Below are positions 2,890 to 18,576 of a stretch of DNA of 18,576 nt, piece by piece. The position numbers and the translations under genes are program-made. Under the pieces are notes generated by a model. That model saw nothing but the letters and a program-made list of their open reading frames with translations, had not been told where the DNA came from and searched no databases. The DNA is from Nanobdellati archaeon (lineage in GTDB: Archaea > EX4484-52 > GLR71). The first letter of the stretch is position 1. Each line of letters starts with the position of its first letter. The stretch spans positions 1 through 18,576 of the forward strand of contig JAHYJO010000020.1 of the NCBI GenBank assembly GCA_019429125.1, read 5' to 3'.

Positions 2890-3225
2890 ACTTCTCTTAT
2901 TCTTTATTTTTTCATATTTTATTAAATAGAATTAGTCATATACCTAAAATCAAAACTTTCTCAGACATATAAAAATAAAAAACAGCTATCATCTAATATC
3001 CCTATTAACTATGAGGACTTGATAAATGGTAAAACACAATACGACAAGAGCAGTACCATATTTTTTGTAGGTATTAAACTCTTAGAAATAAGTTTAATGT
3101 CTTTTAATATATAATCTTTAGAATAACCATTCTCATAAAATTCATTAATACTTTTGTGGTACTTGTTTAGCAAAAAAATAATCAATATGCTTCAGCCGTT
3201 ATGGTGTGATTCCCAATAAATTATA

Positions 3226-3379
3226 ATTTTTACAAAATCAATAGCTAACGCTTAAAAATGTGTTGTTAAAAAATCGTAAAAATTATTTAATCTTATTTTT
3301 ATAAAATCGATAGCTTGCACCCAACTTAAAAAAGTATAAATACAATTATTTCAAAAAATAGTAGTTATCTCTTAAAAAA
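3226..3379 (+). repeat. Degenerate direct repeats in a long AT-rich intergenic region
   Basis: ATTTTTACAAAATCAATAGCT (3226-3246) vs ATTTTTATAAAATCGATAGCT (3295-3315) match at 19/21. Each is followed shortly by CTTAAAAA. A weaker third unit ends in CTTAAAAAA at 3371-3379. Confidence 0.55.
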
Positions 3380-3483
3380 TCAAAATTAAGCAAGACAAAA
3401 ATTAGCTAAACAAATACGAAAATTATAAAAATAATATATTTTAGAGTATTTAAAGTTTTCTATAATTATAACGGTTTTTAGGT

Positions 3484-3528
3484 CTGTTAATTATCAGATA
3501 TACAAATAGGATTATAAATAATTAACAG
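3484..3528. repeat. Perfect 11-bp inverted repeat, 23-nt spacer
   Basis: CTGTTAATTAT (3484-3494) / ATAATTAACAG (3518-3528). Confidence 0.7.
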
Positions 3529-3660
3529 CCATAACAGTGTTTTGTTGTTTTTCCAGATTTTTCAGATATAAGCCGTAATGAATATAAATCTTCATACCTA
3601 ATTTTAGTTTGAAAAGTATAACGCTTTTTTAGTTTTAATATATAGGATTGGTGTTATTAT

Positions 3661-7208: not shown

Positions 7209-8720
7209 TTATCTTACATAGCTGTTGAAAAAGTGTCTTATGTATTTCTCGGATGTTTCTTTTTGCATTATGTCATCGGTTGAAATATCTACTTTGTCTT
7301 TTTGTTCTGTAAATATTATCCATTCTACAAGACTATCAATCATATATGCAAAAACTGTATCTATAGCTTTACTATCTGTTCCTGTCTGTTTGTAGAAATT
7401 TATTGGATTTCCAGAGTTAAGAAGATTTATTCGTTTATTGTTTAGGTTTATGATTTCAGTAAGACCATCATTTGCAACTTTATATTTTTTAATTTGCTCT
7501 TGAGAAAATTCAGCATTATTAGTTGAACAATTAATAAGATATACATTATCTTTAAGGACTTTCAGATGATTTAAATCAAGAGCAGAATCAATGCCTGTTG
7601 TGCTAAATATTATATCATAAGTAGAAACCTTATCAAGGTCTTTTATCATGTCATGATTGTTTAATAACATTTTTGCACTTGCGACTATATCCACATCATA
7701 CCCACAGACGTGAGTAAATCTTTTTTCAAGAATATTGATTAAATAGGATCCTATGCTACCTGTACCTAAGATTAAAACTCGTTTATTTAGTCCAAATTCA
7801 TAGTTGTAATCTCTTGAATAGGTGATAAAAGCATCAAATATGCCTTTTGCAACTAATGGGTTTTCTATTAATTTTTTTAAATTAGATGTTGCTATTGAAA
7901 TTCGTGGAAGATTGTCATTATGTATGTTGTGTCCGTTTTTTGTGTCTTCAATAAGGAATATGCGTTTATTGTTTGTTATATCTTTTGTTATATTATAAAA
8001 TATTCCAGATAAATCAAAAACAAGTATTTTTTTATTGTGTTTGTTTAAGGAAGCGATTATATTTTTTGTGTCAAAAAAATCATTGTTTTCTGTAATTTTT
8101 GAAATTGTTTTTGCGGCTGTTTCACAATATGAATATTTTTTACAGATAAAGTAGATTTTAGTATCAAATAATTGTTTTAAATGTTGTATAAATCTCTCAG
8201 TTTTTGTGTCACAATGGTTTATAACTACAATTTCAAAATCAATCTCTTTTATTTTATCTATGTTTTCTTTGTTGATTAACATATATGGATTGTATGGTAT
8301 CTCTTGTAAAAATATGATTTCTAACTCTTTTTTAACATCTTCAAACAGTTCATCTTTTATCTCCAAATAATCGTTGTAGGTAAACCATTTAGCTTCACTA
8401 ATCTCTGCATCCATCTTTAGGGTATATGTATCCGATTTTGCATAATATATGAAATCAAAATGAAATTTTTTGCCTAAATCTTCAAGCTGGGCATACCTGT
8501 AAGACACTACTTTATTTGATAGGACTTCTTTTCGAGCCATTATTTTTACATCAAGACCTACTTCTTCTTTAATTTCTCTTAGAACTGCTTGGTCGGGGGT
8601 CTCGTCGGGGTCTACTTTCCCACCTACAGGGAGCCATCTTTTTATTTTGGGATGGTTGATTAGAAGTACTTTGTCTTTAAAAATTATGTATGCTGTTGCT
8701 GCGAATTTTGTCGGTTTCAT
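7209..8720 (-). CDS. NUDIX hydrolase fused to an S-adenosylhomocysteine-hydrolase-like NAD-binding module
   Basis: Canonical Nudix box GKVDPDETPDQAVLREIKEEVGL. The C-terminal part has, in SAHH order, INHCDTKT, FDLSG, EDTKNGH, IATSNLKKLIEN, GTGSIG, STTG and LLNSGNPINF. ATG8720 is preferred over TTG8723. Confidence 0.75.
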   Translation of the reverse strand: MKPTKFAATAYIIFKDKVLLINHPKIKRWLPVGGKVDPDETPDQAVLREIKEEVGLDVKIMARKEVLSNKVVSYRYAQLEDLGKKFHFDFIYYAKSDTYTLKMDAEISEAKWFTYNDYLEIKDELFEDVKKELEIIFLQEIPYNPYMLINKENIDKIKEIDFEIVVINHCDTKTERFIQHLKQLFDTKIYFICKKYSYCETAAKTISKITENNDFFDTKNIIASLNKHNKKILVFDLSGIFYNITKDITNNKRIFLIEDTKNGHNIHNDNLPRISIATSNLKKLIENPLVAKGIFDAFITYSRDYNYEFGLNKRVLILGTGSIGSYLINILEKRFTHVCGYDVDIVASAKMLLNNHDMIKDLDKVSTYDIIFSTTGIDSALDLNHLKVLKDNVYLINCSTNNAEFSQEQIKKYKVANDGLTEIINLNNKRINLLNSGNPINFYKQTGTDSKAIDTVFAYMIDSLVEWIIFTEQKDKVDISTDDIMQKETSEKYIRHFFNSYVR

Positions 8721-8809
8721 CAATTTAATTAGTTCTTATTATTTTTAAGCATTATGTATGTTCATAAAAAGAATAATATAATCTCTGAAAATAGGAGAGA
8801 GTAAGAGTT

Positions 8810-9295
8810 TTATAATTCTTCAAAAGTTAATCTAATCATTTCCACATCACTGTTGCTTAATTGTTCTATATAAGCACGTATATCTAGTATGAAATTCTCC
8901 GCATCAAAAAACATATTTTCTGCAATATCTTTAGTCATCTCAACATTTTCTTCTTCAGATACATAATACTGTTTATCAATCCGTTCTTTTTTTACAGATT
9001 CTAGATTTCCCTTCAAATTTGAAAGATTAAATACTTTTTCAAGCAAGATTATAGAGGCAGTGTGATTCTCACATTTTATACCACAATAAAAAAATAAAGA
9101 TAAAGAAGCATTGTACATAGCATAGTATGCAGAAGATACTGAATTTTCATAAAGAGGTGAGTCAAATAGTATTTTTGCAGATTTAAGGCAATTATTTGAT
9201 TTAATAGAATAAGAGGTATAGATTTCTGTTGAAGGTTCAATTAATTTAAGTTTTTTTGCATTTTTTAATTTAATCAAAAAATTTCGTTCTTTCAT
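8810..9295 (-). CDS. HEPN-domain protein (putative toxin of an MNT-HEPN pair)
   Basis: LKSAKIL...SSAYYAMYNA...GIKCENH...KERIDKQYY pattern of archaeal HEPN proteins. It overlaps the 3' end of the MNT gene; start 9295 or 9304. Confidence 0.85.
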   Translation of the reverse strand: MKERNFLIKLKNAKKLKLIEPSTEIYTSYSIKSNNCLKSAKILFDSPLYENSVSSAYYAMYNASLSLFFYCGIKCENHTASIILLEKVFNLSNLKGNLESVKKERIDKQYYVSEEENVEMTKDIAENMFFDAENFILDIRAYIEQLSNSDVEMIRLTFEEL

Positions 9296-9824
9296 AAAAT
9301 TCATCAACTCCTTTGATTATGACATGATTTTTTATAATCTCTTTAATCAACAAATCATTAGGATTAAATAAACCAATCTTAACGCTTAATTTTGAGTTTT
9401 TGTTTTCGATCTCATCCCTTAAACTTATTTTATCTGTTTCAACATATAAATCTATATCGCTATCTCTTTTTGCAGTAAACTTTGCATAGCTTCCAAAAAG
9501 GACGATTAGATGGCTTGTTTTGATTGTTAAAATGTCTTTAATTAACGGTTCAAGGTATGGATAATTGCGGATCAATTTTATCATTTTATAATTTTCGGCA
9601 TCATATGCTGATTTTCGTGCAGATAAACTTTTTTTTAAGAAATAAACTTTACTCTTGCCAACCATTTTATAATCAATTACATTATCTTGTTCTAAAGACA
9701 ATAAATTTCTCTGAATTGTTGTTAAAGGTAGGCTTAGGGATTCTGAAATATCTCTACCATAGGTTTCTTTTTTTAATAATATTAGCAGTATTTCAGATTC
9801 AATGTTGATTCTTTTTTAGTTCAT
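9270..9824 (-). pseudogene. wHTH-minimal nucleotidyltransferase (MNT) antitoxin with a premature TAA at codon 3
   Basis: LFGSYAKFTAKRDSDIDL is the GS-x10-DxD motif. The frame stays open 5' of TTG9701 through an HTH-like segment (KRINIESEILLILLKKETYGRDISESLSLPLTTIQRNLLSLE) up to TAA at 9818-9816, directly after ATG9824-AAC. An in-frame ATG at 9833 also precedes the stop. Confidence 0.75.
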
Positions 9825-10071: not shown

Positions 10072-10914
10072 ATGGTAATGATATTCAAGGCTGACGGTAC
10101 AAAAGTTATGTTTGATAAGAAAAAAGCAAAAACCAGTTGTATTCGCGCAGGAGCATCGTCCGCACTTGCAAAAGAGATAATTGAAATACTTATGCAAAAG
10201 CTTACAGACGGTATGACAACTTCAGACATGAAACATATAATCTATTCTGAACTTGACAAAAGAGAGGAACACACAGCTGCAAAATATAATATAAAAAAAG
10301 CCATTGCATGTCTTGATCCTGTAATGCATCAGTTTGAAAAGTATATTTGCCATCTTTACCAGTATTATGGTTACGAAACTGAATGGAGTCCGATACCTAA
10401 ACCTCAAGGGTTCTGTACTGACCACGAGATTGATGTCATGTTGAAAAAAAATAATGAAATGTCATTTATTGAATGCAAACATCATGTCAAGTATCATAGA
10501 TTTACAGGTCTTGATGTACCTATGCGCGTGTGGGCACGATTACAAGATTTACAAGATGGATTTGAAGGTGATAAAAGAGGGTCTTATGATTTTAAGGAAG
10601 CAATCATTGTTACAAATACTAAATTCTCAGATCATGCAAAAAAATATACATTATGTAAAAATAAGAAATTGTCTTTGGTCGGGTGGAACTATCCTGAGTC
10701 TGCTGGAAGTTTGACAAATCTTATTGAAAAGAAAAAAGCGTACCCACTTACAATACTTAATCTTGATAATACAACTATTGATAAACTTTTTGACCTTAGT
10801 GTGCATGACATAAGAGATTTTGTTTATGTTTCTCCTGACATTCTTGTGAATTCTGGTCTCACGCGCGATAAGATTAAATATTTGTGTAATCTTGTTGAAA
10901 AGATAATAGCTTAA
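10072..10914 (+). CDS. ATP-cone domain + Mrr-like PD-(D/E)xK restriction endonuclease protein
   Basis: N-terminal IFKADGTKVMFDKKK (ATP cone), then FEKYI...YGY, HEIDV, IECKHH and VTNTKFS (Mrr_cat-like). TTTAAAC TATA about 25 nt upstream suggests a leaderless mRNA. Confidence 0.82.
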   Translation: MVMIFKADGTKVMFDKKKAKTSCIRAGASSALAKEIIEILMQKLTDGMTTSDMKHIIYSELDKREEHTAAKYNIKKAIACLDPVMHQFEKYICHLYQYYGYETEWSPIPKPQGFCTDHEIDVMLKKNNEMSFIECKHHVKYHRFTGLDVPMRVWARLQDLQDGFEGDKRGSYDFKEAIIVTNTKFSDHAKKYTLCKNKKLSLVGWNYPESAGSLTNLIEKKKAYPLTILNLDNTTIDKLFDLSVHDIRDFVYVSPDILVNSGLTRDKIKYLCNLVEKIIA

Positions 10915-14713: not shown

Positions 14714-15322
14714 TTATCTGTGATGTCTGCTTATACCCATCCGCATAATGGTCTTTCTTGGAAGTATGAACTCATCTTTTCCATGATATGCTAAAATTGC
14801 AAGGATTGCAAATACTGCAATGAAAACTGCACTGATCAAATTGGAGGACAATGCACCTTGCCTTAAAGCTGTAAGGAGTGTTGTGATATAGATTATCAAT
14901 ACCATCCAGAAATATGAACGATAAAACCTGACATACAATGATTTATATTCTGAGAGGATGGATAGTGGCTGTTTTATGTTTATTATTTCTTCTACTTTTT
15001 CCGTTTCTAACTGTCTTGTATTTAAAATAGATGATATCTCATTTTCCATCTCGCTTTCTTTTAAGGACCAGAACATGTAATAAATATATCTTCTTGCTTC
15101 TTTGAGCCAGAATGTAATTACAAAAAATAGTGATAATGGTATTAGATAATATTCTATACCTGCATTAATCATCAAAGATAATGAAAGAACTAAGATACCC
15201 ACACTCCAGCCTGTAGAATTATCAATACGGTCAATCTCTTTGTTCCTGTTTCTGACGTAACCTGTGTAAAGTGCATCATAGAGTCTTATTGCAGAATCAT
15301 CAGTCAGCGGAATCTTTGACAT
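14714..15322 (-). CDS. DUF2270-like integral membrane protein
   Basis: RIDNSTGWSV, EARRYIYY and RFYRSYFW correspond to the family's RLDxTTNWA / EARRYR / RLRRNY motifs as recalled; 4 TM segments. Confidence 0.75.
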   Translation of the reverse strand: MSKIPLTDDSAIRLYDALYTGYVRNRNKEIDRIDNSTGWSVGILVLSLSLMINAGIEYYLIPLSLFFVITFWLKEARRYIYYMFWSLKESEMENEISSILNTRQLETEKVEEIINIKQPLSILSEYKSLYVRFYRSYFWMVLIIYITTLLTALRQGALSSNLISAVFIAVFAILAILAYHGKDEFILPRKTIMRMGISRHHR

Positions 15323-15538
15323 AATAGATATGTTGTTGTCTGTTGTATATATGTGTTTTTGAAAAAATGTTTTTATTTAAAATATTTGATTGAATGATTA
15401 TTCTATTTTATTATATAATTCCTTGATTTTGTTGTAAAATATGTTTATTTCTAAATAAAAATACGAATAGAAAAAAATTATGATTTCTAATGTAATTATC
15501 ATAATAAATTAATCAATTTTATTGAATATTAAGATAGT

Positions 15539-16426
15539 TCAAATGAATTCTTCGATATTTTTATTCCAGAACTCAATCGATTTTATATCTTCAATGAAAT
15601 CAACTTTAATATCTAAACTCTTAAAATAATCAGTCATTGCTAATAGACTGAATTTTTCAGTTACGTAATGTGAACATCCTAATAAATTTATTTTCAATTC
15701 CTTTGCTTTTGCTATAAAAGGAGGATTGTTCTTTTTTGCATATTCGTTTCCTCTAAAATAAACAATGCCAGTAATATAAGTATCACAGCCAACATCATTT
15801 GCCGCAGATATAAATTCGATATTATCACCTCCGCCAGCAACAACACAAATTCTTTTTATTTTATTATTAAATATAACTTTCTGTAATTTTTTTAAATTAA
15901 GTTTTCGTTTTAATTCTTCTTCAAAAATGTTTAATCTTTCAATATTTAAATCAAAATATACCCCTAAAGGTTCTCCATTAATATATAATCTTTTTGAATT
16001 TTTTATATTTAAATGTTTTAACAGTTGAATGCTTGGTGCATATTTCGGATGATAATCTAAAACATCATGCAAAACAAAAAGTGAAATTTTGTTTGTTTTG
16101 AGTAGTTCATAAGACCTTTTTGATATTGGAACAAAACCGGATCCGAACTGGTTCCAATCCATAGGGTGATGAGAAAAAATTAAAGAATTTTTGTTTGTTT
16201 GTTTTGCTAATTTTAATATTATTTCTTCTGAAGGAAAGACTACACAAAAAATTTTTTCAATTTTATCAGTATTATCTAACATTAAACCTGAAAAATAGTT
16301 TTTATAATTTATTGTGCAATACGTTTCAAAATGTTTATCAAGGATTGGTTGAATTTGTCTAAAAATATCTTTTTTATATATTGGAAAATCTTTTTCTAAA
16401 ATCATTAAAAGTTTATTTTTTTCCAT
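15539..16426 (-). CDS. Nif3/DUF34-family dinuclear metal-centre protein
   Basis: IFSHHPM, LHDVLD, VVAGGGD, YITG and SHYVTEK are the conserved His/Asp/Glu metal ligands. Confidence 0.88.
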   Translation of the reverse strand: MEKNKLLMILEKDFPIYKKDIFRQIQPILDKHFETYCTINYKNYFSGLMLDNTDKIEKIFCVVFPSEEIILKLAKQTNKNSLIFSHHPMDWNQFGSGFVPISKRSYELLKTNKISLFVLHDVLDYHPKYAPSIQLLKHLNIKNSKRLYINGEPLGVYFDLNIERLNIFEEELKRKLNLKKLQKVIFNNKIKRICVVAGGGDNIEFISAANDVGCDTYITGIVYFRGNEYAKKNNPPFIAKAKELKINLLGCSHYVTEKFSLLAMTDYFKSLDIKVDFIEDIKSIEFWNKNIEEFI

Positions 16427-16427
16427 A

Positions 16428-17273
16428 TTAATCCCTCATAGCGATTAATAAAAGCATATTACCTCTAGAAGCTGTCTCATCTTCAAGACAAACCTTTTTC
16501 TCTATTTCAAGTATCTTATTATAATTCTTTTTATTAGAGAGTATAGTCTCTAATTTTTTTGTATTACCAAATATTTTTGTTTCTTCAGTTCCAGGATAAA
16601 TTGTTACTGGAAAACCCAAAATTTTCAAAGGTTTTATTCCAACAGAAGTACATAGTTTTTTTAATGATTTTGGAGTATAAGTATGCATTTTAGGAACCTC
16701 CTCGGTAAATTTTACATAAGACTCATTCAGATTCATATCAAGTTGTTCAAGAGCATTTCTTTGAATATTAAAATAAAGTGCATGATACTTATTAGCAACC
16801 ATCAATACAATTAAACCACCTTTATTTGTTACTTTCACGATATTACTAAGAGCATTTTTTGGAGAATCTACAAAACTAAAAACATTGTTCATCGATATTA
16901 TAAGATCAAATTTCGTTTTGCTAAATGTTTCAAACTTATCTAAGTTTCCTTCTATGAGTTTTACCCGAGAATTTAATTTTTTTTCCCTTATCTTTTTATC
17001 AGCCACAGCTAACATATTTTCACTTATATCAAATACTTCTGCAATGCAATTTGTATGTTCTAATATTTTTAAACTCCATCTTGCAGTACCGCCACCAGCA
17101 TCAAGAAGATTAAATGTTTTTGAAAATTTACTCAATATTTCTTTTTTCAAAATATACCATAATATATCATCAGAAAGCTCCCAATATAATTGCCCATCGA
17201 CATCATCATAATGATTAGCTTTTTTTGCAAAATAATCTATTACTTCTCCAATATTCTTCTCCAAAATAATCAC
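16428..17273 (-). CDS. Class I SAM-dependent methyltransferase
   Basis: LLDAGGGTARWS (motif I), FDISENML, FDLII, NVFSF...P, KGG. GTG start 2 nt after the upstream stop. Confidence 0.9.
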   Translation of the reverse strand: MIILEKNIGEVIDYFAKKANHYDDVDGQLYWELSDDILWYILKKEILSKFSKTFNLLDAGGGTARWSLKILEHTNCIAEVFDISENMLAVADKKIREKKLNSRVKLIEGNLDKFETFSKTKFDLIISMNNVFSFVDSPKNALSNIVKVTNKGGLIVLMVANKYHALYFNIQRNALEQLDMNLNESYVKFTEEVPKMHTYTPKSLKKLCTSVGIKPLKILGFPVTIYPGTEETKIFGNTKKLETILSNKKNYNKILEIEKKVCLEDETASRGNMLLLIAMRD

Positions 17274-17275
17274 TT

Positions 17276-18394
17276 TTAAGGTCTATTTGAATTATGAACT
17301 CTAGGAAATGGTTTTGTCTCCCATATAAATGGCAGTTTCAATAAACACTGAATAAATCTTTCAATACCCATTCCCCATCCAGAATGAATCTTTGGATTCG
17401 TTGAATCCCTTGATGCAATATACGCACCATAATCATCCATATCTAACTTAAAATGTTTTGCTTTCAACTCTGTATCCTCACGAGTATGTACTCTTTCACC
17501 ACTACCAATTATTTCACCAAAACCTGGAAAAAGTAAATCTGCATTAATTACAAGTTCTGGTTTATCTTTATGATTCGCATGATAAAATGCAACTTCATCG
17601 GAAATATAATCAATTACAAAAATAGGTTTTCCACCTAATATTTTTATTAATAATATTTCTTCATAAGCTCCGAAGTTTTTTATTGAAATTTCTTTGTATT
17701 TTAAATTTTTCGTGTGTTTATAAAGCAAGTCAAAAGCTTTATGAAATGTTATTTTATCAAATTTTATTTTAATTATACTTTCTAAATTCTTAAAATCTTC
17801 AATATCTAAAAAAATATCTAAATCATCCTTATTATTATTTAATAGATAATTTATAATGAATTTTAAGTATTTTTCTTGAAAATCTAGATTTTGTTTGAAA
17901 TTTATTTTTCCTTCATATTCAATGTGTGTAAATTCTGGAAGATGACGGAAATCTGCATTTTCCATCCTAAAACTTTTATCCCAACAATATAACTGATCTA
18001 TTTCGGGGTTATTTATAGCGAATTCAAGGTATAATTGTGAGGATTGTGTTAAAAAAGTTTCATGTTCGAAAAATTGTATTCTAAAAGGCTCCACATCAGA
18101 AGGTATTGTACCATTAAGTGCACCAGGAGATGAAATCATTCTTGTTAATACTGGAAGATTAAAAAGGTAGGCACCCTCATGTTCCATAAATTTATTAGAT
18201 GCTTTAAATATCGCATCAAATATCCTTATAATAGCTGCCCATTTTTTTGGTTCGTTTTTTAAATCTTTATACCTCATACTTAAATCAGGAGGAGAAACAA
18301 ATTTTACATTATCAATCTTATTAAAAACCTTGTTACCTATATAACTTATTTTTCCATCCTCTACAAAATAGGGTCCACAAGATTTAGATTGCAT
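17276..18394 (-). CDS. Class IIb aminoacyl-tRNA synthetase paralogue (AsnRS/AspRS catalytic core only, no OB-fold anticodon domain)
   Basis: FLTQSSQLYLE, motif 2 SFRMENADFRHLPEFTHIEYE, ADLLFPGFGEIIGSGER and motif 3 HSGWGMGIERF...PFPR. Only about 50 aa precede the catalytic core. Confidence 0.88.
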   Translation of the reverse strand: MQSKSCGPYFVEDGKISYIGNKVFNKIDNVKFVSPPDLSMRYKDLKNEPKKWAAIIRIFDAIFKASNKFMEHEGAYLFNLPVLTRMISSPGALNGTIPSDVEPFRIQFFEHETFLTQSSQLYLEFAINNPEIDQLYCWDKSFRMENADFRHLPEFTHIEYEGKINFKQNLDFQEKYLKFIINYLLNNNKDDLDIFLDIEDFKNLESIIKIKFDKITFHKAFDLLYKHTKNLKYKEISIKNFGAYEEILLIKILGGKPIFVIDYISDEVAFYHANHKDKPELVINADLLFPGFGEIIGSGERVHTREDTELKAKHFKLDMDDYGAYIASRDSTNPKIHSGWGMGIERFIQCLLKLPFIWETKPFPRVHNSNRP

Positions 18395-18415: not shown

Positions 18416-18430
18416 AATATAAAGTTTTTG
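18416..18430 (-). promoter_or_regulatory. BRE/TATA promoter for the three-gene operon (probably leaderless)
   Basis: Minus strand CAAAAAC-TTTATATT, with the TATA element 22-29 nt upstream of ATG18394. Confidence 0.55.
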
Positions 18431-18448: not shown

Positions 18449-18494
18449 ATTGAGCTCATCCAGTTAAGCTCAATTTTTCAATCCTTAACTGGAT
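18449..18494. repeat. Two interleaved perfect inverted repeats (pseudoknot-capable)
   Basis: ATTGAGCT (18449-18456) / AGCTCAAT (18467-18474) and ATCCAGTTAAG (18458-18468) / CTTAACTGGAT (18484-18494). Confidence 0.8.
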
Positions 18495-18576
18495 ACTATT
18501 TTTTTAAATGGATTAAATTTTCAAAAATATTAACAAATTCATCAAAAAATCAATTTTATCACATAATTATTTATTA

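Follow-up and report, generated by a model that had tools for sequence, protein, structure and literature searches.

The stretch of DNA analyzed here (18,576 bp; hereafter, the window) is the entire contig C5 (JAHYJO010000020.1) of a Nanobdellati archaeon genome (G000; assembly GCA_019429125.1), which comprises 1.16 Mb in 32 contigs and is 93% complete. Contig C5 also encodes fibrillarin, Nop56/58, an archaeal alanyl-tRNA synthetase (AlaRS), and ino1, and toward one end it carries the three minus-strand genes that are the subject of this study (Table 1). In order of transcription, these encode a ligase resembling the catalytic core of asparaginyl-tRNA synthetase (AsnRS; P0001), a class I S-adenosylmethionine (SAM)-dependent methyltransferase (P0002), and a Nif3/DUF34 protein (P0003). 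We show that the three genes form a genuine operon. They are separated by gaps of 2 nt (17274-17275, ligase/methyltransferase) and 1 nt (16427, methyltransferase/Nif3), and an earlier note made from the letters alone, which had described three co-oriented genes so spaced and richer in AT than alaS and ino1, is borne out by the open reading frame (ORF) coordinates and by base composition (operon GC 0.269 vs. 0.398 for alaS and 0.403 for ino1). Among 2146 genome windows of the same size (mean GC 0.341, s.d. 0.027), the operon falls within the lowest 0.5%. The note had also credited the operon with its own TATA promoter. A TATA-like string does lie just 5' of the ligase gene, but TTTAWA strings are common in the window, at 5.7 per kb, and the promoter is thus plausible but not demonstrated.

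The ligase P0001 matches the Pfam family tRNA-synt_2 (E = 1.6e-39) and has no match to PF01336. With the TIGR00457/PRK03932 pair of AsnRS models, it scores 197.4 bits against PRK03932 (cut-off 414) and 180.9 bits against the second model (cut-off 342.6), and the aligned portion of PRK03932 covers model positions 118-448 only. Because the AsnRS model matches begin at position 118, the ~115-aa anticodon-binding OB domain is absent from P0001. About 40-45 residues precede the core, forming an N-terminal beta-hairpin and helix that are conserved in the family. Both motif 2 (FRxE...RHLPEF) and motif 3 (GxGxGxER) are retained, without variation across the family, so that the first gene is what the earlier note had taken it for, a class II core that keeps these motifs and lacks the OB-fold. 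Residues F142, R143, E145, H151, E154, F155, E159, E161, E294, R301, and R346 are likewise invariant in the family or nearly so. Two of them, the invariant E159 and R301, align with E225 and R368 of Thermus thermophilus AsnRS, which we take to be residues of asparagine recognition. Where the aspartyl-tRNA synthetase (AspRS) of G000 reads QSPQIYKQ, the ligase reads QSSQLYLE, without the AspRS-type Asp-binding lysine after QSxQ. A family-specific invariant loop (residues 84-104) is longer than its AsnRS counterpart and is modeled with low confidence.

Structural comparisons point in the same direction. The best Protein Data Bank (PDB) sequence matches of P0001 are AsnRS structures with bound Asn-AMP or an analog (E = 1.6e-32), and its best fold matches are the AsnRS structures 1x54 and 9sh8 (E = 3e-24). 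The archaeal asparagine synthetase AS-AR of Pyrococcus abyssi in the PDB matches at E = 1e-8, and the fold matches listed include no AS-AR or AsnA chain. Against the AS-AR models NF005052-NF005055, P0001 scores 114.6, 100.1, 96.3, and 84.1 bits (cut-offs 389, 322, 368, and 309), and it is also below the cut-offs of both EpmA/PoxA models (19.1 bits vs. 264 and 16.5 bits vs. 286.9). P0001 most probably forms asparaginyl adenylate (asparaginyl-AMP).

P0001 has 218 homologs at E <= 1e-5. The 120 matches listed are 47-70% identical to it, most of them with a length of 366-372 aa; where a source names such homologs, which few do, the name is asparagine-tRNA ligase, a misannotation now carried in public records, or "amino acid--tRNA ligase-related." In a pattern scan across 185,579 species genomes, 429 relatives were confirmed, full-length AsnRS among them; our analysis concerns the 80 best loci. 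These comprise 68 loci of the OB-less family and 12 of ordinary AsnRS (421-438 aa). The 68 OB-less loci come from Woese-, Nano-, Pace-, Micr-, and Parvarchaeota, from lineages of the candidate phyla radiation (CPR), and from a few metagenome-assembled genomes (MAGs) with other labels. A family hidden Markov model (HMM) cleanly separates this family (272-663 bits) from the other class IIb groups, namely most full-length AsnRS (139-202 bits), two further OB-less types (110-113), AspRS (64-90), and AS-AR-type proteins (40-62).

We also placed the family in a quick IQ-TREE phylogeny (LG+G4) of 94 hand-picked rows, comprising the query, 11 famA and 33 famB loci, 22 AsnRS-like, 14 AspRS-like, 9 other OB-less, and 4 lysyl-tRNA synthetase (LysRS)-like sequences, with near-duplicates and broken ORFs excluded. 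The OB-less family forms a monophyletic group (SH-aLRT 100) with a long stem and falls inside the AsnRS clade (SH-aLRT 100), apart from AspRS. It joins, with weak support (SH-aLRT 83) and a warning of a possible long-branch artifact, as sister to an OB-less clade in which two NF005052-positive AS-AR proteins are found. Nesting within AS-AR would have refuted the earlier note, but the ligase does not nest within the Pyrococcus-type enzymes; it forms a separate clade (SH-aLRT 100) and scores below the AS-AR cut-offs. Proteins that fuse a P0001-like ligase into a longer chain were not found at E <= 1e-20, which is weak evidence. On sequence comparison, we show that P0001 is a member of a distinct AsnRS-derived family of ~370 aa in DPANN and CPR, not an ordinary synthetase.

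We find that this family has conserved methyltransferase and hydrolase partners. Neighboring ORFs of at least 90 aa were clustered across the 68 loci and representatives were annotated; 64 of the 68 have an intact ligase ORF. A class I SAM methyltransferase lies within the fetched flank in 52 of these 64 loci, and in 29 it starts no more than 150 bp from the ligase stop codon. At least one hydrolase is also present in 52 of the 64, and 44 carry methyltransferase and hydrolase together. Neither partner is present in four: three of these loci (L045, L064, and L079) end at most 1.9 kb downstream, and the fourth, L040, carries fused versions. In L040, which belongs to a Myxococcales-labeled MAG, a LysRS-like protein is fused to an MccF-type S66 domain (807 aa; L040:4580-7000), and a P0002-like methyltransferase of 497 aa has a 200-aa N-terminal extension (L040:3189-4679). 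Thus, the pairing of ligase and methyltransferase recurs widely in Archaea and CPR. The earlier note had envisaged recurrence of all three genes: the first two do recur together, in 52/64 loci, whereas the trio with Nif3 is found in only 2/68 ligase loci and in 0/80 Nif3 loci.

The recurrent third partners were not foreseen in that note and are of the MccF-type S66, HIT, S51, and amidohydrolase types. An S66 protein occurs in 40/68 loci and is MccF-type, matching the Bacillus anthracis and Escherichia coli MccF structures at E = 1.5e-52 to 1e-43 and LdcA-type muramoyltetrapeptide carboxypeptidases only at 1e-13 to 1e-8; its Ser, Glu, and His motifs are present. HIT proteins are found in 13/68 loci, S51 proteins of the PepE/cyanophycinase-like kind in 4/68, and a weak Amidohydro_2-like family in 6 ligase loci. 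In L031 and L034, which hold the closest relatives of the ligase and methyltransferase, the third gene is an Amidohydro_1 protein of the aminofutalosine/5'-deoxyadenosine/methylthioadenosine (MTA)-S-adenosylhomocysteine (SAH) deaminase type.

Aminoacyl-tRNA synthetase (aaRS) genes are also frequent neighbors. A bona fide prolyl-tRNA synthetase (ProRS; ~558 bits) stands in tandem with a divergent ProRS-like protein (~236 bits) in 21/68 loci (e.g., L043, L063, L089, and L035); LysRS-like proteins of 421-438 aa that score below the cut-off occur in L044, L049, L052, L058, L068, and L070; and an AlaRS core lies beside a divergent AlaRS-like protein in three loci (L032, L033, and L038). A full-length AsnRS directly adjoins the ligase in four loci (L039, L050, L062, and L072), and AsnC-type double-HTH regulators stand divergently upstream in 8/68. 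In the Creative Commons literature of PMC and bioRxiv, we found no description of the OB-less family, of its pairing with a methyltransferase, or of its pairing with an MccF-type protein.

The methyltransferase P0002 matches several class I methyltransferase Pfam models (up to E = 1.2e-14), and its GTG start has the same position as the starts of its homologs. Its best NCBIfam match is CmoM, at 71.7 bits against a cut-off of 366, which is below equivalog level. The structure model (pLDDT 91) matches E. coli CmoM bound to tRNA-Ser (8joz_A; TM 0.76/0.82, E = 2.1e-17), with which it shares its fold including the C-terminal part. TM1389 is also near this fold, and the next matches (~1e-11) are a million-fold weaker than CmoM. 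The Pfam and NCBIfam matches include no TrmK-type (COG2384) model, and the ESM Atlas gave generic methyltransferase clusters only. A predicted complex of ligase and methyltransferase scored 0.00, which counts neither for nor against binding. Two methyltransferase subfamilies occur among the 68 family loci, M2 (the P0002 type) in 17 and M1 in 35; they have only the Rossmann core in common, at ~16% identity (hhalign probability 99.3 over 124 columns).

P0003 matches the Pfam family DUF34_NIF3 (PF01784; E = 9.1e-28, 98 bits, gathering cut-off 23.4), and it is a divergent member because its TIGR00486 score (85.1 bits) is under the cut-off of 130.55. Columns H87, H120, D124, H253, and E257 do not vary, and H86 varies little; we take these conserved His, Asp, and Glu columns to be metal ligands. 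G000 also has a housekeeping Nif3 on contig C13 (174 bits; 96.5 bits for P0003), which is 27% identical to P0003. The nearest relative of P0003 is 45% identical; the closest Nif3 relative, P0123, lies on a contig of 1694 bp. The Nif3 proteins of the 40 related genomes compared, 7 of them from the same genus, are 22-33% identical to P0003 in frames of 249-322 aa, the best being that of G008 (E = 4.4e-32, 32%, 322-aa frame). This G008 gene (L111:1-3820), the closest within the same taxonomic family, stands between an arginyl-tRNA synthetase gene and a HEAT-repeat DNA methyltransferase gene, without a ligase.

A P0003-like Nif3 accompanies the ligase in 2 of the 68 ligase loci (L089 and L090, which are nearly identical to each other) and in 2 of the 42 genomes with the ligase, with one weak match besides. 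The gene order in the two loci is ligase-Nif3-methyltransferase, with HIT and S66 genes further along. None of the 80 metagenome loci that carry the nearest relatives of P0003 has the ligase family; in two of them a full-length AsnRS lies directly upstream of Nif3 (L167:3569-5747 and L203:1012-3197). In a FastTree phylogeny of 107 Nif3 rows, the L089 protein does not join P0003 and P0123, and both lie on long branches. Nif3 as a conserved partner of the ligase was considered and is rejected on these counts (2/68 and 0/80). We read it as an occasional, lineage-specific accessory in the variable third slot of the module, not as a defining member. The operon does resemble TrmK-YqfO-type neighborhoods in that a DUF34 gene lies directly 3' of a SAM methyltransferase gene; it differs from them in that P0002 is not TrmK and P0003 is a second, divergent DUF34 copy. 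In the excerpted text of PMC8469502, DUF34 genes are reported to cluster often with COG0500 SAM methyltransferases and with the tRNA A22 methylase COG2384, and a role as metal chaperone or insertase is proposed for DUF34.

We show that the operon is an insertion sequence (IS)-associated acquisition specific to G000, inserted into a DPANN-type archaeal chromosome. In all five congeners (same genus) examined, the DUF2270 gene directly adjoins a gene for an MscS-type channel. In G000, the MscS gene instead lies close to one end of contig C27, with a DDE transposase after it, and the two genes are kept apart by the operon, a repeat, and the transposase at contig ends. Near-identical DDE_Tnp_1 fragments occur at the ends of contigs C13, C31, C11, and C28; present in several copies, this IS both interrupts the assembly and lies at the border of the insertion. 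The 127-bp repeat that closes contig C5 has at least five further copies in the genome, with copies of 100% identity at C21:181-307 and C28:2-127, and further copies on C15 (97.6%), C2 (95%), and C31 (89%); it may be an IS end or an element similar to a miniature inverted-repeat transposable element (MITE). It is the broken adjacency of DUF2270 and MscS, together with the transposase copies at contig ends and the multi-copy repeat, that identifies the operon as acquired. Inside the window, searches for tRNA genes, Rfam families, and meaningful flanking repeats found none. A close homolog of P0001 was found in 0/40 relatives (no non-self match exceeds 32% identity, and the frames are of 419-471 aa), and the same holds for P0002 (best E = 9e-10). 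The suggestion that the genes are mobile is thus upheld by the synteny break, the repeat, the transposase, the low GC, and the absence of close ligase homologs from the relatives.

G000 makes its Asn-tRNA by another route. The full-length AsnRS or AspRS whose presence elsewhere in the genome the earlier note had proposed to confirm turned out to be an AspRS only: a non-discriminating archaeal enzyme (ND-AspRS, 565 bits) is present, and a full-length AsnRS was not found in G000. GatB, GatE, and GatA were found. With ND-AspRS, these three Gat proteins, and no AsnRS, Asn-tRNA is made by GatCAB transamidation, and P0001 plays no part in making it; the operon is not needed for translation, since ND-AspRS, GatA, and GatB are present and AsnRS is not. 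This route, and the congeners that do without the gene, agree with the expectation that the first gene does not encode an ordinary synthetase.

Core-only aaRS paralogs have repeatedly been found with new chemistry, as in AsnA/AS-AR, EpmA, GluQRS, HisZ, and the amino acid:carrier-protein ligases. We tentatively favor a reading of this kind for the operon, plausible rather than probable, in which asparaginyl-adenylate from the ligase feeds aminoacyl-nucleotide chemistry outside translation, the product is then modified by the methyltransferase, and a variable third gene, here Nif3, supplies a metal-dependent step of processing or self-protection. We infer that the first two genes make up the functional core, the ligase retaining its ATP site and AsnRS-type pocket. 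The ligase would adenylate L-asparagine to asparaginyl-AMP without transfer to tRNA, and the adenylate would be converted to, or serve as donor for, a small aminoacyl-nucleotide or aminoacyl conjugate. The methyltransferase would then decorate this ligase-derived product, perhaps at a carboxylate, since its nearest fold, CmoM, methyl-esterifies a carboxylate. The third slot would hold a hydrolase or processing enzyme, being MccF-type S66, HIT, S51, adenosine-deaminase-type, or another amidohydrolase elsewhere and the dinuclear-metal Nif3 in G000, and this enzyme would most likely turn over, mature, or detoxify the product. Alternatively, Nif3 could act as a metal chaperone serving the methyltransferase.

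Other truncated synthetases offer parallels to this reading. GluQRS (YadB) and EpmA/PoxA have also lost the anticodon-binding domain and send their adenylate to a non-canonical acceptor, as proposed for P0001; they are of another class or subfamily, the EpmA models give P0001 16-19 bits, and EpmB/EpmC-type partners are missing. The hydrolases recall microcin C (McC). In the portions of PMC9239234, PMC8323819, and PMC7157772 drawn on here, MccF, the HIT enzyme MccH, and the S51 enzyme MccG cleave toxic isoasparaginyl- or aspartyl-nucleotides from microcin C-like antibiotics and make up the three known hydrolase classes for that cleavage. As excerpted, PMC8323819 has MccB open the microcin C pathway by adenylating a C-terminal asparagine, and MccD and the C-terminal domain of MccB, with a SAM-dependent class I methyltransferase fold, decorate the McC nucleotide. 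The likeness thus lies in adenylation at an asparagine carboxylate (putative for the ligase), in SAM-dependent class I fold enzymes, and in the same three hydrolase families, which are neighbors at the family loci. The differences are that MccB is ThiF-like whereas our ligase is an aaRS core, that an Asn-terminal precursor and, among the recurrent neighbors, an exporter are lacking, that the hosts of the ligase family are DPANN and CPR, and that none of these hydrolases is encoded near the operon in G000. In albomycin synthesis, again as given in part of PMC8323819, a cluster-encoded seryl-tRNA synthetase (SerRS) supplies seryl-adenylate for the warhead. By this partial account, the enzyme, AbmK, resembles the ligase as an aaRS-type enzyme in an accessory cluster that serves a non-translational aminoacyl-nucleoside, and nucleoside methyltransferases are found there too. 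It differs in being a complete, functional SerRS that also confers resistance, and no AbmF-like transferase was identified at the ligase loci.

Several observations weigh against the reading in terms of aminoacyl-nucleotide chemistry. No product, acceptor, or activity has been assigned to any member of the family. The ligase genes show no upstream enrichment of MccA-like precursor peptides: of the small ORFs on the same strand in the 400 bp before the 64 genes, 2/174 end in Asn, vs. 218/4233 (5.2%) in the background. Neither a ThiF-like MccB nor an exporter is among the annotated neighbor clusters (most of those present in at least 3/68 loci, plus one found in two loci), although no search was aimed at ThiF or MFS proteins. 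Since there is no Asn-terminal precursor, and no ThiF-like enzyme or exporter among the annotated recurrent neighbors, the ligase system is most probably not a microcin C cluster. M1 and M2 may catalyze different reactions because they have only the Rossmann core in common. The hydrolase theme is imported from other genomes, because tblastn found no S66, M1 methyltransferase, or bacterial-type ProRS-like gene in the G000 assembly; it gave two HIT matches, both on contigs other than C5. It is equally possible that the neighboring hydrolases have only defensive or housekeeping functions, and the adenosine-deaminase-type neighbor may do no more than clear SAH or MTA on behalf of the methyltransferase. 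The AsnC-type regulators (8/68 loci) and adjacent full-length AsnRS (4 loci) would also fit plain asparagine metabolism. Finally, the locus counts include related genomes and so are not independent.

Asparagine metabolism is the basis of one rival explanation, in which the ligase is an ammonia-dependent asparagine synthetase like AS-AR or AsnA, converting Asp to Asn via beta-aspartyl-AMP, and the methyltransferase and Nif3 are unrelated neighbors. AS-AR (P. abyssi 3P8T) and AsnA are, like the ligase, catalytic-core-only descendants of the Asp/AsnRS lineage, so the absence of the OB domain fits, as do the weak sister placement next to the OB-less clade containing AS-AR (SH-aLRT 83, with its long-branch warning), the divergent AsnC-type regulators in 8/68 loci, the adjacent full-length AsnRS in L039, L050, L062, and L072, and the fact that AsnB was not found in G000. 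We nevertheless consider this unlikely. The ligase is ~75 residues longer than AS-AR and far closer to AsnRS (PDB matches of 1.6e-32 vs. 1e-8; 181-197 bits with AsnRS models vs. 84-115 bits with AS-AR models, whose cut-offs are 309-389), and AS-AR and AsnA chains are absent from the fold matches listed. Free Asn is moreover not required for translation, because neither G000 nor its congeners have an AsnRS, and a synthetase would leave the methyltransferase (52/64) and hydrolase (52/64) partners unexplained. At the other end of the scale, it is very improbable that P0001 works as an AsnRS, charging tRNA(Asn) though it has no anticodon-binding domain of its own, alone or with a partner in trans. 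It shares with canonical AsnRS (Pyrococcus horikoshii 1X54; T. thermophilus 5ZG8/9SH8) the class IIb core, motifs 2 and 3, and the Asn-recognizing Glu and Arg positions; the AsnRS-type pocket and motif 2 loop are fully conserved, and no full-length AsnRS was found in G000. Yet canonical AsnRS has the OB domain, whereas the ligase family has the N-terminal hairpin and helix and the longer 84-104 loop and is dispensable in G000, where GatA, GatB, and ND-AspRS are present; 7/7 congeners manage without the ligase gene, and many family-bearing genomes also hold full-length class IIb enzymes, some of them adjacent. A split synthetase is unlikely as well. PF01336 detects a single standalone OB protein in G000 (98 aa, contig C13), and this candidate partner is rejected, being kept in 7/7 congeners that have no ligase; no split-synthetase OB partner was thus found.

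An RNA-modification module is also unlikely. Here, the ligase would aminoacylate a modified tRNA nucleoside, as GluQRS does, the CmoM-like enzyme would methylate the adduct, and Nif3 would accompany them as it accompanies TrmK in Firmicutes. CmoM is both the best structural match (in its tRNA-Ser-bound form) and the best NCBIfam match of P0002, aaRS genes are abundant in the ligase neighborhoods, and there is reportedly a precedent for a truncated aaRS that modifies RNA (Salazar 2004). COG2384 and COG0500 are among the COGs most often clustered with DUF34, as far as the excerpt of PMC8469502 goes. Against this stand the low score with the CmoM model (71.7 bits, cut-off 366), the unrelated M1 enzyme in most loci (35 vs. 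17 with M2), and the MccF-type, HIT, and S51 partners, which it does not explain. A patchy, IS-linked acquisition absent from 40/40 relatives would be unusual for a tRNA modification enzyme, and the window contains no tRNA gene or Rfam match. A further possibility, quite unlikely in our judgment, is an island that confers only resistance to aaRS inhibitors of the aminoacyl-adenylate type, with the ligase as a decoy, the methyltransferase and hydrolases as inactivating enzymes, and the extra aaRS as insensitive spare targets. The strict conservation of the adenylation residues argues for an active enzyme and not a sponge, an MccF-type gene was not found in G000, and we know of no precedent for a methyltransferase as immunity against aminoacyl-adenylate compounds. 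Such an island would accommodate the three McC-resistance hydrolase families, the tandems of bona fide and divergent ProRS, the AlaRS-core pairs, the LysRS-like copies, and the LysRS-like::S66 fusion of L040; stand-alone MccF and MccG homologs are reported to confer basal resistance in the portions of PMC9239234 and PMC8323819 used here.

The aminoacyl-nucleotide reading that we favor also has a more specific form, which lies well on the unlikely side: an undescribed, mobile pathway of DPANN and CPR in which an aaRS core makes a stable (iso)asparaginyl- or aspartyl-adenylate-like compound from the free amino acid, a SAM enzyme tailors it, and hydrolases or Nif3 protect the producer. This would be a peptide- and MccB-independent counterpart of the microcin C warhead, with MccF-, HinT-, MccG-type, or adenosine-deaminase-type hydrolases, or Nif3, as protectors. 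G000, without AsnRS, would be naturally insensitive to an Asn-AMP mimic, and the divergent ProRS-, LysRS-, and AlaRS-like paralogs might themselves make warheads or serve as insensitive targets. Should the aminoacyl-nucleotide reading prove correct, it would show how ultra-small episymbionts make or resist translation-targeting compounds, and Nif3/DUF34 would gain a concrete biochemical context. The ligase family is in any case large and strongly conserved, and it has a consistent partner set across several DPANN phyla and CPR.

Table 1. Features of the operon, of its insertion site, and of the rest of the window.
Feature	Position	Strand	Remarks
P0001, OB-fold-less AsnRS-like class IIb core ligase	17276..18394	-	372 aa, ATG start
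P0002, class I SAM-dependent methyltransferase, subfamily M2, CmoM-like fold	16428..17273	-	281 aa, GTG start
P0003, divergent second Nif3/DUF34 paralog	15539..16426	-	295 aa
TATA-like TTTATAT	18417..18423	-	23-29 nt 5' of ligase ATG; possible archaeal promoter, leaderless transcript
T7 run	15471..15477	-	~62 nt past Nif3 stop codon; possible archaeal terminator
127-bp multi-copy repeat	18450..18576	.	contig end; starts 56 bp upstream of ligase; imperfect hairpin ~18456-18497
DUF2270 membrane protein (native flank)	14714..15322	-	beside MscS gene in congeners
DDE_Tnp_1 transposase	G000 C27:43405-44739 (= L245:1506-2840)		445 aa, open at contig end, low GC
AT-rich region	~2900-3660		~760 bp, GC 0.23
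NUDIX-Rossmann protein	7209-8723	-	504 aa, TTG start
HEPN and nucleotidyltransferase genes	8810-9701	-	165 aa and 143 aa, overlapping
ATP-cone/Mrr_cat protein	10072-10914	+

Elsewhere in the window, the AT-rich region contains no ORF of at least 100 aa, tRNA, or Rfam match. The overlapping HEPN and nucleotidyltransferase genes resemble a HEPN/MNT toxin-antitoxin module. Beside them, a protein with an N-terminal NUDIX domain and a Rossmann domain represents an unusual fusion, and its Rossmann domain has weak similarity to AdoHcyase_NAD/2-hydroxyacid dehydrogenases. Lastly, one protein combines ATP-cone, Mrr_cat restriction-endonuclease, and AF1548-like C-terminal domains and may be a nucleotide-sensing nuclease.

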